Part shown: piece by piece, positions 436-11,177 of the stretch
Layout of the letters: each line of letters opens with the position of its first letter
How positions within the stretch are numbered: the stretch's first letter is position 1
Made by a program: the position numbers and the translations under genes
NCBI GenBank assembly: GCA_019894975.1
Contig: JAGXNO010000067.1
Location: 1-15,140 of the forward strand
DNA length: 15,140 nt
Direction of reading: 5' to 3'
DNA from: Promethearchaeota archaeon
Lineage (GTDB): Archaea; Asgardarchaeota; Lokiarchaeia; Sigyniarchaeales; SOKP01
Notes under the pieces: model-generated
The model's database searches: none
The model's input: the letters and a program-made list of their open reading frames with translations, nothing else
What the model was told of the DNA's origin: nothing

Positions 436-1692
436 CTATTCATTTTCTTTATTGTTGTCTTCTTCTTCTACTTCACCCTCTTCCAGATCATTTGTAAAAT
501 TAAAGGGTGGAAATTTCCTTCTTCTGGAAAAAAGATCTTTTAACCTTAGCTTTAACTCATTAAAAGGTTTTAAATTTCCCGAAAATGGAGTTTTTACTAC
601 GTTCTCGACTTCAGGATTAATTAATTCTTCTTCAATTATGTCAATGTTTCCTAAATTTCCTTCAGATAATAATGAGAGATAGTAATCATTCACATATTTT
701 CGAAAGGTTAAAAAACGATATTTTTGGAATCCTAATTTTACTGCAATCCATCGAGGGACAGCGCCAGTATTTCCTTGAGTATTTGCTGCAATCGCTTCTA
801 TTCTAGCGGTTAGCATAGACTCTTTCATTTCTTTCTCTTCTTCAGGGCTATCTACTTCCATCTGCAACTCAACATTTAATTCCTCTCCTATCAGTAATGA
901 TATTACCCCAATTGACATAGATGAAAGACCTAAATAATCTATGCGAATGGAGTCTTCAACATAAGGAATTACTTTATCTGAAAAGAACTCTTGCAATTTG
1001 AGGTATTCCATCAAAATAAAATTCGTTCGTTTTTTAAATTCAAGTTCTATTTGATATTTCTCAAATTTGGGTAGATTGTTTACATCTTTACCTCGTACTA
1101 ATTCAGAGTAATTATTTGACATTTGTTCAAGTAGCCACTTACCCTTTTTATCTGGAAACTTGCCATAAACCAGATATATTATCTCATCTTTAACAAAAAA
1201 TTGACATTTTTCCTCAGTATTTTTTTCTTCGGAAACCAGCAGCATTTTATCAAGTTCACCTCCTAAAATGCCAGTTGCTATGAAATCTAAATTATTTGTC
1301 AATTCTAATAAATAAGTATAATTTTTATTACTACAATATAATTCCGTTCTATCCGTTGATGTAATTCCCAGTAGTTTTATATATTCTAAGGGAGAATCGT
1401 CCTTAGATAACTTAATTTCATTGCTTTCCAATGAAAAAGACATAGGTGGTTCTTTTACTTTTACCTTCCCTCTCAATTTTGATGATAAAGTTGTAGTTTT
1501 GGTTTCAAATTGTTTAGGCTGAAGCTTTTCTTTCTCTTCGGAACTCAGATCATGTAAAATAGCTAAGAATTTGCTACATTTAGGACAGAGTTTGTCTTTA
1601 GGGAAAGGTTTTGTAATAATATATCCACAAAATGGACATTTAATCGTATTTTTCGGCGTATCTGAAGGAAATAAAGATTTAGGAATTTTTAT
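436..1692 (-). CDS. Hypothetical protein: N-terminal C4 zinc ribbon, two putative longin-like domains and an acidic tail (start codon uncertain; ORF track begins at TTG 1476)
   Basis: Manual translation shows no stop from 1477 to 1707 (TAA at 1710-1708). The extension reads (I)KIPKSLFPSDTPKNTIKCPFCGYIITKPFPKDKLCPKCSKFLAILHDLSSEEKEKLQPKQFETKTTTLSSK. Downstream are two alpha/beta blocks, the second ending PFSGNLKPFNELKLRLKDLF, then the tail DLEEGEVEEEDNNKENE. The CDS itself is well supported; the domain call and start are less so. Confidence 0.6.
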   Translation of the reverse strand: MKIPKSLFPSDTPKNTIKCPFCGYIITKPFPKDKLCPKCSKFLAILHDLSSEEKEKLQPKQFETKTTTLSSKLRGKVKVKEPPMSFSLESNEIKLSKDDSPLEYIKLLGITSTDRTELYCSNKNYTYLLELTNNLDFIATGILGGELDKMLLVSEEKNTEEKCQFFVKDEIIYLVYGKFPDKKGKWLLEQMSNNYSELVRGKDVNNLPKFEKYQIELEFKKRTNFILMEYLKLQEFFSDKVIPYVEDSIRIDYLGLSSMSIGVISLLIGEELNVELQMEVDSPEEEKEMKESMLTARIEAIAANTQGNTGAVPRWIAVKLGFQKYRFLTFRKYVNDYYLSLLSEGNLGNIDIIEEELINPEVENVVKTPFSGNLKPFNELKLRLKDLFSRRRKFPPFNFTNDLEEGEVEEEDNNKENE

Positions 1693-1695
1693 CGA

Positions 1696-1752
1696 CTCTC
1701 CTAAAATTTAGTCAATTATTACAATTATTAGGTTAAAATTATATATTTTTTT
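1696..1752 (-). promoter_or_regulatory. Putative BRE/TATA element and SD-like sequence upstream of the zinc ribbon gene
   Basis: The minus strand reads AAAAAAA (1752-1746), TATATAAT (1745-1738), then AGGAGAG (1702-1696) just before the in-frame ATA at 1692-1690. AT-rich background lowers certainty. Confidence 0.4.
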
Positions 1753-6306: not shown

Positions 6307-6418
6307 AAAAATTTGAACACTCATAACTATTATAATTTTTATTATATTCTTTTTTATTTATTATTAGGTTTTAGATGAAAATTGAATCTTGATTTTAAAA
6401 GATGTTCAAACATTAACA

Positions 6419-8176
6419 ATGAAATTCAATATTTTAGCCCAGTTATTTTCTGACCTAGAAGATACTACAAAAAGACTTGAAATGATAGATATTTTATCAA
6501 GTTTTTTTGAATCATTAAGAAATAAAGCAGATTTCAATGATTTAGATAAAATTATATATCTTTTACAAGGACAATTAGTTCCTAACATAAGACAATTCCC
6601 CAAGATGGGAATAGCTGAGAAGATGATTATTGAAGCTTTATCGGTACATTCTGGAATAGAGGGAAAAAGAATTAAGGAAGTACTTCGGAAGCAGGGAGAT
6701 ATTGGAGCGGCAGCAGAATTAATTCTATCAAAAAAGAAGAAACAGACATCTCTTTTTGATTATAACCAAAACGATGAAATATCAAAATCATCTCTTGAGA
6801 TTTCGGAATTATATTCTGAATTAAAGAAGATCGCTTTAACTGAAGGCTCAGGATCACATGATATAAAGTTAGGGATATTAAGAGGATTGATGAGGAAGAG
6901 TTCACCATTAGAAACTAAATATTTGTTAAGGATTATTACCTCTACATTAAGAGTAGGTGTTCAGGAAGCGACCATAATTGAAGGATTAGCTTTAGCATTC
7001 ACAGGGATGAGAGAGAATAAAAATATAATTGAAAAAGCATATAGATTATATCCTGATCTGGGTGAAATTTCAATAATATTAGCAGAACAAGGTTTAGATA
7101 AAGTTAAAAAAATAGATATTAAATATGGTACACCCATCCTAAGTATGCTTGCTTCACGAGAAATATATACCGAATTTATAAATAGGTTAGGCGTCCCTTT
7201 TGTCGCTGAAAATAAACTGGATGGGGAAAGACTCCAAATTCATAAACAAGGTGATCTTGTAACATTATTTTCCCGACGTTTACTGGATATTTCAGAACAA
7301 TATCCCGACGTCTGTGAAGTAGTAAGAGAAAATATTTTAACTCAAAATGTTATTTTTGAGGGAGAAGTTGTTGCGATGGATCATTTTTATGAAAAGATGC
7401 GCCCATTTCAAGTATTAAGCCAAAGAAGAAGAAAGTATGATGTTGAAGATATCTTAAAAGAAGTACCCGTATGTTTATTTGTTTTTGATCTTCTAAAATT
7501 GGGGGATATATCTTATGTAGATATACCTTTTTCAGACCGTAGAAGAAAACTTGAAGAAATAGTAAAAGAAAGAGATGAAATAAGGTTAGTGAAATCAGTT
7601 TTGATAAATAAAACTGATGAGTTGCTTGATTTCTTTAATAAAGCTAGAAATGAAGGATTTGAGGGAATTATGGCAAAATCTATTAAAGATGATTCTGTTT
7701 ATCAAGCGGGAAATCGTGGATATAAATGGTTAAAATTAAAAAGCTTAGAAGGAGGAAAATTAAAAGATACTATTGATGTGGTTGTAGTAGGGGCTTTTTA
7801 TGGGAAAGGTCGTAGAACTGGTTTATTGGGAACTTATATCGGGGCAGTATACGATCCTGAGAGTGATAATTATATAGCATTCACTCGTTTTTTTTCAGGG
7901 ATAGATGATGAACTATCAGAAGCACTTACGAAAGACATGGAAGATTTTACGCTTGATAAAAAGCCAAAAAATGTAATCTGTGAGGATAAACCGGATATCT
8001 GGTTAACTCCAAGAGTAGTTATTGAAATAACTGGGGATGAGATAACTATAAGTGAAAAATTCATCACATTAGGATTTTCAATGAGGTTTCCCGTTTTTCT
8101 GAGATTACGTCCTGAAAAAGGTCTAAAAGATATTACTACAGTAAGAGAGATTCACGAATTGTATGAAACTCAGTGA
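6419..8176 (+). CDS. lig: ATP-dependent DNA ligase (archaeal/LigI type)
   Basis: Motif I ENKLDGER, III FEGEVVA, IIIa FVFDLL, IV EGIMAK, V WLKLK, VI MRFPVFLRLRPEK, plus an N-terminal DNA-binding domain. ATG 6419 (MKFNILA) preferred over TTG 6389. Confidence 0.96.
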   Translation: MKFNILAQLFSDLEDTTKRLEMIDILSSFFESLRNKADFNDLDKIIYLLQGQLVPNIRQFPKMGIAEKMIIEALSVHSGIEGKRIKEVLRKQGDIGAAAELILSKKKKQTSLFDYNQNDEISKSSLEISELYSELKKIALTEGSGSHDIKLGILRGLMRKSSPLETKYLLRIITSTLRVGVQEATIIEGLALAFTGMRENKNIIEKAYRLYPDLGEISIILAEQGLDKVKKIDIKYGTPILSMLASREIYTEFINRLGVPFVAENKLDGERLQIHKQGDLVTLFSRRLLDISEQYPDVCEVVRENILTQNVIFEGEVVAMDHFYEKMRPFQVLSQRRRKYDVEDILKEVPVCLFVFDLLKLGDISYVDIPFSDRRRKLEEIVKERDEIRLVKSVLINKTDELLDFFNKARNEGFEGIMAKSIKDDSVYQAGNRGYKWLKLKSLEGGKLKDTIDVVVVGAFYGKGRRTGLLGTYIGAVYDPESDNYIAFTRFFSGIDDELSEALTKDMEDFTLDKKPKNVICEDKPDIWLTPRVVIEITGDEITISEKFITLGFSMRFPVFLRLRPEKGLKDITTVREIHELYETQ

Positions 8177-8192: not shown

Positions 8193-9551
8193 TTAATAAT
8201 AGATTTTTAATCCTGAGCTTTCTAAATTTTTTAAACTTTTTGGGATTATTTTTACCTTAGTATCTTTTAAATAGAGCTCTTTTAATGATGGCAACGAAGC
8301 GATTGATTTAGGAAGATAATTAATTTCATTCCTTGATAAATTTAAGGTTTTCAAATTGTGAAGGTTACCAATACTCTCTGGAATTCTTTTTAACTTATTA
8401 TCACTTAGGTTTAAAAACTCTAAAGATGAGAGGTGCCCAATACTATCAGGGAGATCAACTAATTCATTCCTTTCCAAATCTAATATCATAAGTGATGAGA
8501 GATATCCTATACCTTCTGGTATTCTCTCAATTTGATTCCAACTTAGAATCAGTTTTTCTAATGAACTAAGTTGTTTCAATGATTCTGGGATTTTTATTAG
8601 TTGGTTATCATGTAAGTCTAGTTCTCTTAGTGATGATAAGTTTTCAATCGAATCGGGTAGAGTTTTAAGTTGGTTTAGTCTAAGGTTCAATGTTTCTAAA
8701 GATATTAATTGTCCAATGGTATTTGGAAGGTATGTAAGTTCATTTTTCCATAAATATAGTTCTCTAAGAGAACTCAGCATACCAATCGATTCAGGTAGTT
8801 TATTCAAGTTATTAACGTTGATATTTAATTCTTCAAGAGATTTTAAGACCCCTAGCCAATCAGGAAGATGTACCAATTGGTTATATCGCAGGATAAGTGT
8901 TTTCAACTGGCCTAGATATTCAATTACTTCTGGTAGCCTTGTTAAACCTTTAAAAATAAAATCTAATTCCACAATTTTGCATTCTTCAATTTCAAACTTT
9001 AATCTCCAATAAGATTTTTCCAATAAAATAATAGTAAAATAGTTAATGAGTATATCGCTCAGATCATTTTTAGAAAACGAATCTATCTCTTTAGTCTCGC
9101 ACATAATTTCAAATCCTAACCTAAACTCTTTTCTCCTAATTTTTTTAACTTCGGAAAGTAAAGTAGATTTTGTTAAAGAATTTGAATTCTCTACTAAATT
9201 TCGTAAAATTTTTATTAGTGTTAAATAGATAGTGTTTAAGCATAAAGGAGAATCCTCATGAATGAGAGCCCACTTCATTGGTTCTAGGATTTTTTCTAAA
9301 TAATTTTTTGCAAGTGTAAGTGCTGCTGTATTTCTAACTACTTCATTCGAATCAGAAATGAGTAAATTTTCTAAAATTTTGAATGTATGATTGTCTTTAA
9401 TTCCAATTCTTCCTATATCATTAATACAGTTAACTCTTACTTTGTCATTATCACTATTTTCAATTAAGGACAATAACAGTTTTGTTGCAGAATGTTTATC
9501 TAAATTATTTTTTAAGAAGTCTTTGTAGATCCTATCCGGGGTCAATTCCAT
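8193..9551 (-). CDS. HEAT-like N-terminal domain + leucine-rich repeat protein (about 11 LRRs of 23 aa)
   Basis: Repeats of LxxLxLxxNxLxxLPxxIxxLxx from about residue 193 (nt ~8975). N-terminal helical repeats include LENLLISDSNEVVRNTAALTL. No signal peptide or transmembrane segment seen. Confidence 0.92.
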   Translation of the reverse strand: MELTPDRIYKDFLKNNLDKHSATKLLLSLIENSDNDKVRVNCINDIGRIGIKDNHTFKILENLLISDSNEVVRNTAALTLAKNYLEKILEPMKWALIHEDSPLCLNTIYLTLIKILRNLVENSNSLTKSTLLSEVKKIRRKEFRLGFEIMCETKEIDSFSKNDLSDILINYFTIILLEKSYWRLKFEIEECKIVELDFIFKGLTRLPEVIEYLGQLKTLILRYNQLVHLPDWLGVLKSLEELNINVNNLNKLPESIGMLSSLRELYLWKNELTYLPNTIGQLISLETLNLRLNQLKTLPDSIENLSSLRELDLHDNQLIKIPESLKQLSSLEKLILSWNQIERIPEGIGYLSSLMILDLERNELVDLPDSIGHLSSLEFLNLSDNKLKRIPESIGNLHNLKTLNLSRNEINYLPKSIASLPSLKELYLKDTKVKIIPKSLKNLESSGLKIYY

Positions 9552-9662
9552 TAGGTTAAAAAATTGATTTTACCTTTTTAAATTACTGCTTTAACTTGTA
9601 TATGACGTTTCAATTATTCATATAACCGGATAAATCTAATTCTTAAATTATTAAGTGCTTAA

Positions 9663-11153
9663 TTATAGTTTAATAACTAATCCCCTAGTTTGTTCTAAAT
9701 CTTTCAAAAAAGGTGGTTTCTCATCAAAACGGTTGAAGTTTAAATCTAATACTTTAAGTGATGTTAATAAAGATATTGATTCAGGAAGTGTCTTTAGTTT
9801 GTTGCCCCATAGGTTTAATTCTTCGAGTGATGATAATGAAGCAATCCAATCTGGTATAGAAGTAAGATTATTCCAACTTAAATTCAATGTTTTAATAGAT
9901 TTCATATTAGTCAATGAAGGAGGAAGTTCTGTTATTTGATTATTTCTTAAATTGAGATGTTCAAGAGACTTCAGATGACCAAATGATATTGGAATTTCAA
10001 ATAATCTATTATCATATAGATCCAAGTGTTTAAGTAAATAAAATTGCCCAATCCAATCGGGTATGTTAATTAATTTATTACCCCCCAATCCCAACCTTTC
10101 TAGAGATAAGAGTTGTTTGACTCCATTTGGAACAGTTTTGAAATTATTCCATCCAAGCTCTAATTCTCTAATTGAACTGCTCAAATTAAAATTTATTAAA
10201 TTTAATTTGTTTCCATGCAAATCCAGAACTTTAAGTGAAGAAAGTAGGTTTAATGTTTCTGGAAGTTCTGCTAGCATATTATTTCTTAAATTTAAATATT
10301 CAAGTATTCGTTGAGAACCTAGTGATTCAGGAAGCATTCTTAGCCGATTAGATTTTAGATTTAAACTCTTCAATATGGTAAAATTTTGAAGATTAGGAAT
10401 TCTTACCAATTTATTATAACTTAAATCTAAATATTCAATTGAGTTATTAACTACATCTGGGAATTTAGTTAAGTGATTAAATCGTAAATCACATTTTTTA
10501 AGATCTTTTACTGTAAAGATTGCTTCTAAAAAATTTTCCAGCTTATTCAAACCAGAACTATATCTCTCAACATTAGATAAATCTAATTCAGTAATCCTGC
10601 CATATTCATTGTTTTTAAATTTAAAATATCCAAATGTCTTCTTTAAAAATGTAATTAAATTATAATTTATCAATATATCTGCAAGTTCCTTATTCGGAAC
10701 ATTTTCTGCATATTCTTTTTTAAAAATATCGTCTCCAGAACGTTTATAATCCTTTTTATGAAACTTATTTAATTCCTTAAGTAACACTAAATTAGCATCA
10801 TCAGTTTCAATCTCACCAATAGTCGAAATAATAGAAATTAGACACTTTAAGGATTTTTCATGTTCAAGAGCCCATATCATAGGATTGAGAGCACTCTCTA
10901 AATAATGATTTCTAAGAACAGAGATTGTTAAGTATCTTATACCCTCATTTAAATCAGAAATTAATAAATGCTCTAGGAATTCAAAGGTTTTCTCGTCATT
11001 TACTTGGATTTTATCGAGGACATTAATGCTTTCTATCCGTGCTTCGATTTTTTCTGCATTATCTATAAGAGTTAACAATAGTTCTATAGCAAATGATTTA
11101 TCTAAATCCCCATTTACAAAATCTCTATAAATAGCTTTTGGTGTTAAAGGCAT
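9663..11153 (-). CDS. HEAT-like N-terminal domain + leucine-rich repeat protein (about 13 LRRs of 21-23 aa); paralog of 8193..9551
   Basis: LRRs start at about residue 187 (nt ~10595). The first 100 aa align without gaps to the neighbouring paralog, with 47 identities by manual count. Confidence 0.92.
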   Translation of the reverse strand: MPLTPKAIYRDFVNGDLDKSFAIELLLTLIDNAEKIEARIESINVLDKIQVNDEKTFEFLEHLLISDLNEGIRYLTISVLRNHYLESALNPMIWALEHEKSLKCLISIISTIGEIETDDANLVLLKELNKFHKKDYKRSGDDIFKKEYAENVPNKELADILINYNLITFLKKTFGYFKFKNNEYGRITELDLSNVERYSSGLNKLENFLEAIFTVKDLKKCDLRFNHLTKFPDVVNNSIEYLDLSYNKLVRIPNLQNFTILKSLNLKSNRLRMLPESLGSQRILEYLNLRNNMLAELPETLNLLSSLKVLDLHGNKLNLINFNLSSSIRELELGWNNFKTVPNGVKQLLSLERLGLGGNKLINIPDWIGQFYLLKHLDLYDNRLFEIPISFGHLKSLEHLNLRNNQITELPPSLTNMKSIKTLNLSWNNLTSIPDWIASLSSLEELNLWGNKLKTLPESISLLTSLKVLDLNFNRFDEKPPFLKDLEQTRGLVIKL

Positions 11154-11177
11154 ACAACCATTTTACAACTGTTTTTT

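Follow-up and report, generated by a model that had tools for sequence, protein, structure and literature searches.

An AUU start codon proposed for a zinc-ribbon gene of a Lokiarchaeial genome from the comparison of its orthologs

How is a protein domain translated when the reading frame that encodes it contains no recognised start codon? The question is raised by the window analysed here, a stretch of 15,140 nucleotides (nt) that is an entire 15-kb contig from the 3.9-Mb metagenome-assembled genome (MAG) of a member of the Lokiarchaeia (Promethearchaeota). On its minus strand an open reading frame (ORF) of 346 amino acids (aa) runs from TTG 1476 to the stop at 438-436, and this is also the form in which the exact protein is called publicly (P0003). 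The frame itself is longer. It is stop-free from 1707 to 436, starting at ATT 1707 and bounded by TAA 1710-1708, and the 77 extra codons ahead of the 346-aa ORF encode the motif CPFC-x13-CPKC (1638-1576), while the stretch 1707-1477 has zero in-frame ATG, GTG or TTG codons. All of this had been described in an earlier note, made from the letters alone, which proposed that the hidden domain is translated by non-canonical initiation and that gene callers shorten the protein; the description is confirmed in the sequence, and the public 346-aa call is indeed the shortened form. Our comparison of orthologs supports non-canonical initiation and indicates that translation most likely begins at ATT 1686-1684, giving a protein of 416 aa. 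We consider it probable that this is an Asgard-specific zinc-ribbon/longin-like protein which starts at that ATT behind a Shine-Dalgarno (SD) element, as one instance of a genome-wide non-AUG habit.

Coding status of the zinc-ribbon extension

Several lines of comparison indicate that the hidden extension is coding. The earlier note had suggested searching for its homologs, and a six-frame search recovered orthologs in 32 of 36 same-genus genomes, with alignments that begin at query residues 1-14. When the set was widened with loci from species genomes and metagenomes to 199 related loci (143 of them unique), the zinc-ribbon motif was found in frame with the main ORF in 190 of the 199. The start-less stretch of the proposed coding sequence (CDS) is 70 codons long and includes the C4 motif; when the window was compared over these codons with its two nearest relatives (84% and 89% identical), the ratio of non-synonymous to synonymous substitution rates (dN/dS) came to 0.09 and 0.10, from 9-10 synonymous and 4 non-synonymous differences. 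The genome has 2971 frames of 150 codons or more, and only 39 of them have 70 or more start-less leading codons; together with the conservation of the Cys motif, this argues that the locus is not a product of chance. A pseudogene or decaying N-terminus is not supported, the frame being intact and its start-less part under purifying selection.

The sequence itself appears to be correct. Two separate ENA metagenome assemblies, from the samples ERZ27271183 and ERZ27271186, are identical to the window across the 120 bases compared, which run from the last part of hisC through the spacer between the genes into the beginning of the extension, and both have TCG at 1695-1693 and the run of four T at 1706-1703. 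An assembly slip is therefore unlikely. In some orthologs (L007, L010, L012, L017, L024, L030 and L149) long poly-A runs, encoding poly-Lys, lie between the start region and the zinc ribbon, and the frame breaks inside the run in L017, L024, L030 and L149. These breaks may reflect either homopolymer length errors in the assemblies or a slippage-prone sequence.

The ribosome-binding motif and the candidate start codon

Upstream of the zinc ribbon the family keeps the motif GAGTTG[G/A]T in 115 of the 143 unique ortholog loci. Most same-genus orthologs have a TTG at the site of the window's TCG (GGAGAG-TTG and GGCGAG-TTG in the nearest relatives, GGAGAG-TCG in the window), and gene callers use that TTG, resulting in database proteins of 396-397 aa. 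However, the frame of this TTG relative to the ORF is not constant: in the 115 loci it is 0 in 59, +1 in 50 and +2 in 6, and on a family tree computed from the part of the gene that follows the first Cys it changed at least six times. An in-frame ATT (73), ATC (18) or ATA (16), and never ATG, follows the motif in 107 of these 115 loci. The distance from the T of the TTG to this codon is 9 nt in 55 loci and 10 nt in 48. Of the TTGs in these 107 unique orthologs, 52 are out of frame and 4 more, all of frame 0, are separated from the ATT by an in-frame TAA; 69 of the 143 unique loci lack any in-frame canonical start ahead of the zinc ribbon. Since the TTG frame drifts while the distance to the ATT/ATC/ATA codon stays fixed, the motif behaves as a ribosome-binding site rather than a start codon. 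On this comparative evidence the TTG with which the relatives' genes are annotated to begin belongs to the ribosome-binding site, and its change to TCG in the window would thus leave the start intact.

The 16S ribosomal RNA (rRNA) was not assembled in the window's genome, and its 3' tail was taken from a same-genus genome (L044), in which it ends in GGATCACCTCCA; the full SD is therefore GGAGGTGATCC. The forms GAGTTGGT and GAGTTGAT equal GAGGTGAT but for one position, and the two orthologs with AAGGTGAT and GGGGTGAT match the anti-SD better. For the window's GGAGAGTCGAT the predicted duplex with the 16S tail has -9.3 kcal/mol, pairing GGAG, GU and GAU with two single-base bulges, and for the genus consensus motif -5.9 kcal/mol. 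Duplexes of -8 kcal/mol or lower were found for 9.6% of ATG genes and 2.3% of shuffles. In about 110 loci a TTG is kept where a perfect SD has GTG (GAGTTGGT vs GAGGTGAT), and the perfect GGTGAT occurs in only two.

The ATT of the window lies where an initiation codon would be expected, 5 nt past the GGTGA-equivalent (the genome's ATG genes use 4-9 nt) and 11 nt past GGAG, which is also within the ATG-gene range. In 43 loci an in-frame stop stands 0-2 codons ahead of the ATT/ATC/ATA codon. The third base of this codon underwent at least 14 changes among T, C and A on the family tree and none to G, which is suggestive of avoidance of ATG, or of selection for a weak start. Two loci inside the genus-level group, L048 and L099, have moved to an ATG close by. 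In other families of the order (L221-L236, including single-contig genomes of 4.3-6.0 Mb) the orthologs have an ATG at the homologous N-terminus, which is of the Met-Phe-Phe-Asn type, and this ATG is situated ~12-16 residues ahead of the first Cys, so that the N-terminus falls at the codon occupied in the window's genus by ATT, ATC or ATA. The ATT/ATC/ATA start of the zinc-ribbon gene thus appears, among the orthologs compared, to be confined to the genus-level group of the window. Per-column entropy around the codon was uninformative, since the loci fall into two spacing classes and differ by N-terminal indels, which blurs the columns. We infer the initiation event and the N-terminal residue from the conservation, frames, spacing and purifying selection seen across these orthologs.

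A number of observations weigh against an SD-placed ATT start. A U:C mismatch to the anti-SD is conserved in the family motif (GAGTTG, not GAGGTG), the T-to-C change in the window is a further irregularity, and the duplex predicted for the window requires its two bulges. The spacing rule is not followed by the poly-A orthologs L010, L017, L030 and L149, nor by L100 and L124. In the 59 frame-0 orthologs the TTG could serve as the start, or as a second start beside the ATT/ATC/ATA codon. Finally, a competing near-cognate codon, ATA 1692, is just two codons away from ATT 1686.

If translation does begin at ATT 1686-1684, the 16S 3' tail would pair with the SD-like element at 1701-1691 and so place the 30S subunit, the TTG site (TCG here) serving within the ribosome-binding motif and not as a start. 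The AUU would then be read by the normal CAU initiator transfer RNA (tRNA), with a third-position mismatch tolerated by the initiation complex, and the zinc-ribbon gene would be one case of a habit of the genus, in which some genes start at AUU, AUA or AUC behind a strong SD. A search with Aragorn without introns missed the Met tRNAs; when introns were allowed, 28 tRNAs were found in the MAG, an incomplete set. One of them, intron-bearing and on the minus strand (G000 C104:32242-32373), has a CAU anticodon, an A1:U72 pair and GGG in the anticodon stem, and it is probably the initiator tRNA. With a normal CAU initiator anticodon, third-position mismatch would be the simplest mechanism.

Of the other explanations, the one that survives best is initiation at ATA 1692-1690, which would yield 418 aa with AGGAG (1702-1698) as the SD. 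The earlier note had placed this ATA, 5 nt past AGGAG, and the in-frame ATT codons at 1707 and 1686 correctly, and had favoured the ATA. ATA is a near-cognate codon, and genome-wide ATA starts are as common as ATT starts. However, the site is not kept as a near-cognate codon (orthologs have GTA, ATA, GTG, ATG, GTT, AAT or AAA), it overlaps the conserved SD-like motif, in 56 orthologs the codon there is not in frame or precedes a stop, and a spacing of 5 nt from GGAG to the start is rare in the genome, where it peaks at 6-12. We therefore regard the ATA as an unlikely start: the idea of a near-cognate start holds, and the codon shifts by two, to ATT 1686.

Somewhat less likely still is that the TTG of the relatives is the true ancestral start, lost in the window through the change of TTG to TCG, so that the gene is decaying or yields only the 346-aa product from TTG 1476. 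Most same-genus orthologs do have the TTG in frame, public annotations use it, and at this site the T-to-C change is precisely what separates the window from its nearest relatives. Against this stand the intact frame and the dN/dS of about 0.1 over the start-less part. Moreover, at least two ortholog groups with a full frame acquired TCG separately (the window; L014, L052 and L139), and in 56 of the 107 orthologs that retain the zinc ribbon the TTG is out of frame or separated from it by a stop.

The out-of-frame TTGs raise another scenario, in which a mini-ORF started by the TTG is translated and the ribosome reinitiates at the nearby ATT/ATC/ATA, in place of SD-directed placement. In these orthologs the TTG opens a mini-ORF of 2-9 codons whose end is close to the ATT/ATC/ATA codon or slightly beyond it, and such a mini-ORF could account for the retention of TTG in the motif in place of GTG. 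Yet the window and three other loci have TCG and hence no mini-ORF, the position of the mini-ORF stop varies from before to after the ATT/ATC/ATA codon, and the genome's other ATT/ATA/ATC starts follow plain GGTGA sites without a TTG. We hold reinitiation to be very improbable at this gene, and it was rejected as a general explanation on these grounds. A programmed +1 frameshift like that of prfB was likewise rejected, the relation of TTG to ORF being 0, +1 or +2 with no common slippery site, and the window having no TTG at the site.

Least credible of all is a sequencing or assembly error, or ribosomal slippage, at the T4 run, which the earlier note had correctly located at 1706-1703, between the out-of-frame TTG 1715 and the frame, as a point where an extra T would join the two: frame breaks do occur in some orthologs, though inside long poly-A runs, but the T4 run and the frame are unchanged in the nearest relatives, most orthologs lack an equivalent upstream TTG and none uses the TTG-1715 frame, and the TCG...ATT sequence is identical in the two other assemblies. 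The reading that we retain is initiation at ATT 1686-1684.

Other start-less genes, the protein and its locus

The zinc-ribbon gene is not the only one in this genome to lack a canonical start. Among the same 2971 frames, 129 have at least 35 start-less leading codons, and many of these are real genes with an SD and an ATT, ATA or ATC right behind the upstream stop. In seven frames with a Pfam match the first canonical start is 35-73 codons in, while position 1 of the profile is matched at frame residue 4 (RagA/Gtr1), 8 (Ras), 9 (AFOR_N), 4 (TatD), 12 (Aconitase), 27 (DEAD) and 6 (zf-AN1). A genome-wide scan for motif plus codon was noisy, being dominated by intragenic copies of the motif, and counts over boundary ORFs were used instead; GTG lies within GGTGA and is in frame at spacings of 2, 5 and 8, which led to under-sampling that was corrected in the final count. 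At 5-7 nt past GGTGA the boundary ORFs have ATG in 38 cases, ATT in 15, ATA in 15 and ATC in 7, so that the three near-cognate codons total 37 vs 38 for ATG; six A/T-rich control codons together account for 11. It is conceivable, though we would put it below an even chance, that in this Lokiarchaeial genus AUU, AUA and AUC are regular SD-dependent starts for a sizeable class of genes, and that in the zinc-ribbon/longin family selection has preserved a weak start across more than 100 species without a change to AUG.

At least 12 other intact genes (L205-L220) have a Pfam domain with no canonical start ahead of it, and a GGTGA-type SD 3-7 nt before an ATT, ATA or ATC. Examples are found at G000 C109:109183-110157, C117:687-1451, C88:47984-49891, C87:100578-101396 and C11:38589-39938. 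The start-less genes include a RagA/Gtr1-like GTPase, a Ras-like GTPase, an aldehyde:ferredoxin oxidoreductase, TatD, an aconitase-family protein and paralogs of ADP-forming acyl-CoA synthetase. Possible CTG starts were seen in two genes, one encoding a DEAD-box helicase and the other an AN1 zinc-finger protein, each with GTGA, then AATAAA, then CTG, and a possible ACG start in the gene of an HdrC-like 4Fe-4S protein, 5 nt past AAGGTGAT. These three loci (L212, G000 C137:12870-14090; L213, C94:22832-23872; L214, C77:18968-19582) have no ATT, ATA or ATC upstream of their conserved N-terminal motifs.

As for the product of the zinc-ribbon gene, its cysteines C19, C22, C36 and C39 are invariant in a 38-sequence alignment (A1); the two CxxC knuckles with an x13 spacer are those of a C4 zinc ribbon, and the AlphaFold2 model has two short strands at the motif, with a predicted local distance difference test score (pLDDT) of about 70. 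Searches of the full protein against Pfam and NCBIfam gave no significant family match, the sub-threshold ones being UPF0547 (E = 0.035), a rubredoxin-like domain (0.049) and the RNA polymerase subunit P model (0.18), and in the ESM Atlas only unnamed Promethearchaeota clusters were matched. The whole-protein model is poor (pLDDT 52), and only the first longin-like domain in it is interpretable. With VIA-align, the segment of residues 104-237 in this pLDDT-52 model superposes on longin domains with 107-132 residues aligned and Z 8-10, the matches including SRX, Sec22b, VAMP7, Mon1-Ccz1 and the Lokiarchaeal roadblock-longin 8yqg (Z 8.1); from the same model, nearly all of the 35 chains at Z of at least 8 are longin. 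The best Foldseek matches are longin domains as well, at E 2.6e-3 or weaker. A second, similar pattern of secondary structure occurs at about 590-940 of the window. We tentatively describe the product, from the model, as an Asgard-specific protein that combines a zinc ribbon with a longin domain. A distant paralog of its C-terminal half (L002, G000 C153:49649-50206; 28% identity to residues 211-392) lies in an open frame of 303 aa without a zinc ribbon, and similar paralogs occur in other genomes of the genus.

The gene is located directly 3' of hisG-hisD-hisC on the same strand. The earlier note had pointed to the TATA-like TATATAAT at 1745-1738, which is present there. Together with an A-rich stretch it forms a promoter-like element that is kept in the closest relatives, L035 and L036, and from the usual archaeal distance between TATA box and start a transcript start near 1718, with a leader of ~30 nt, is possible. 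In many same-genus orthologs the gap to hisC is ~37 nt, and co-transcription with hisC is thus equally possible. An Rfam search of 1400-1900 gave no match at E up to 1, and the leader is unstructured (z = +1.27), with no stable fold, which together make a riboswitch or leader structure unlikely. Elsewhere in the window, two adjoining genes on the minus strand (8196-9569 and 9666-11162) encode leucine-rich-repeat proteins, one of them with N-terminal HEAT repeats, and the pair adjoins a gene for an ATP-dependent DNA ligase (6386-8173, plus strand).

Coordinates of the zinc-ribbon gene and its proposed signals in the window (BRE, B recognition element)
Feature	Positions	Strand	Basis or remark
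Possible BRE/TATA promoter element, A-rich stretch and TATATAAT (1745-1738)	1738..1752	-	sequence only
In-frame TAA, upstream bound of the open frame	1708..1710	-	sequence
Shine-Dalgarno-like element GGAGAGTCGAT, window version of GAGTTG[G/A]T	1691..1701	-	16S-tail pairing and ortholog conservation
TCG at the site of the relatives' 'TTG'; proposed part of the SD-like motif, not a start	1693..1695	-	ortholog comparison
ATA, earlier candidate start, overlapping the 3' end of the SD-like motif	1690..1692	-	spacing to GGTGA-equivalent -1 nt
ATT, proposed initiation codon	1684..1686	-	homologous to the orthologs' ATT/ATC/ATA at a fixed distance from the motif
Proposed full CDS, 416 codons and stop 436-438	436..1686	-	frame, ortholog search, start-codon comparison, dN/dS
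C4 zinc ribbon, CPFC-x13-CPKC	1576..1638	-	motif; conserved in 190 related loci
TTG taken by gene callers, giving the shortened 346-aa product	1474..1476	-	public call P0003
Longin-like domain, beta-beta-alpha-beta-beta-beta-alpha	982..1383	-	AlphaFold2 model, VIA-align, Foldseek

Relation to known systems and significance

Initiation at AUU or AUA directed by an SD is known from bacteria, where infC and pcnB of Escherichia coli are such genes. As in these bacterial cases, the zinc-ribbon gene has a near-cognate codon that is properly spaced behind a strong SD, kept among relatives and missed by gene finders. Unlike them, it belongs to an archaeon with the eukaryote-type factors aIF1, aIF1A and aIF2 in place of IF3, it would be one of many genes rather than of a handful, and its start is proposed from the comparison of orthologs. 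In Staphylococcus aureus, infC, cvfC1, ccpN and citZ start at AUU or AUA behind extended SDs, with about 10-30% of AUG activity (PMC13009471), which suggests tuned low expression; for the archaeal gene, any such level would be a matter of inference.

In archaea, a review of initiation lists only AUG, GUG and UUG as start codons, and in the one Lokiarchaeial genome that it examined SDs were not prevalent (PMC7531240). A 'rare ATT start codon' was proposed, in a methods remark, for AtubA, a tubulin gene in a Heimdallarchaeial (Kariarchaeaceae) MAG (PMC13394414). There too the deposited protein of an Asgard gene is truncated at its N-terminus, and an upstream ATT, with a likely ribosome-binding site at a plausible distance, restores the conserved N-terminus. 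AtubA differs in being a single gene from another Asgard class, whereas more than 100 orthologs and a genome-wide count are available here. In the literature that we looked at, we found no other Asgard mention of an ATT start.

In eukaryotes, the initiator tRNA reads near-cognate codons that are one position off AUG, and factors of the eIF1/aIF1 type set the fidelity of the choice (PMC5666671, PMC4705826). The codons described here likewise differ from AUG at one position, and Asgard archaea share factors of this type. Unlike in eukaryotes, where scanning and Kozak context operate and CUG is favoured, SD pairing would place the codon here, and AUU, AUA and AUC dominate. With regard to the protein, residues 104-237 of the low-confidence model resemble the longin domains named above, and the product differs from the longin proteins of Asgard archaea and eukaryotes in lacking a significant sequence-family match and in having a fused N-terminal zinc ribbon.

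For this gene, our results change the model from 346 aa to a proposed 416 aa that include the zinc ribbon. Since the TTG would belong to the ribosome-binding site, the start annotated at this codon in hundreds of database orthologs is probably wrong. More generally, gene finders limited to ATG, GTG and TTG shorten or mis-start such genes in Asgard MAGs, affecting domain inventories and structure predictions. The conservation reported here may be among the cleanest comparative proofs so far of AUU/AUC/AUA initiation in Asgard archaea, and the combination of eukaryote-type initiation factors with conserved near-cognate starts makes start-codon fidelity directly testable in this lineage. If AUU, AUA and AUC do prove to be regular starts, many Asgard protein models, including those of eukaryotic signature proteins, would be wrong at the N-terminus, and the weak start kept in the zinc-ribbon/longin family would point to a layer of translational control tied to start-codon fidelity, through aIF1-type proofreading, in the closest archaeal relatives of eukaryotes.

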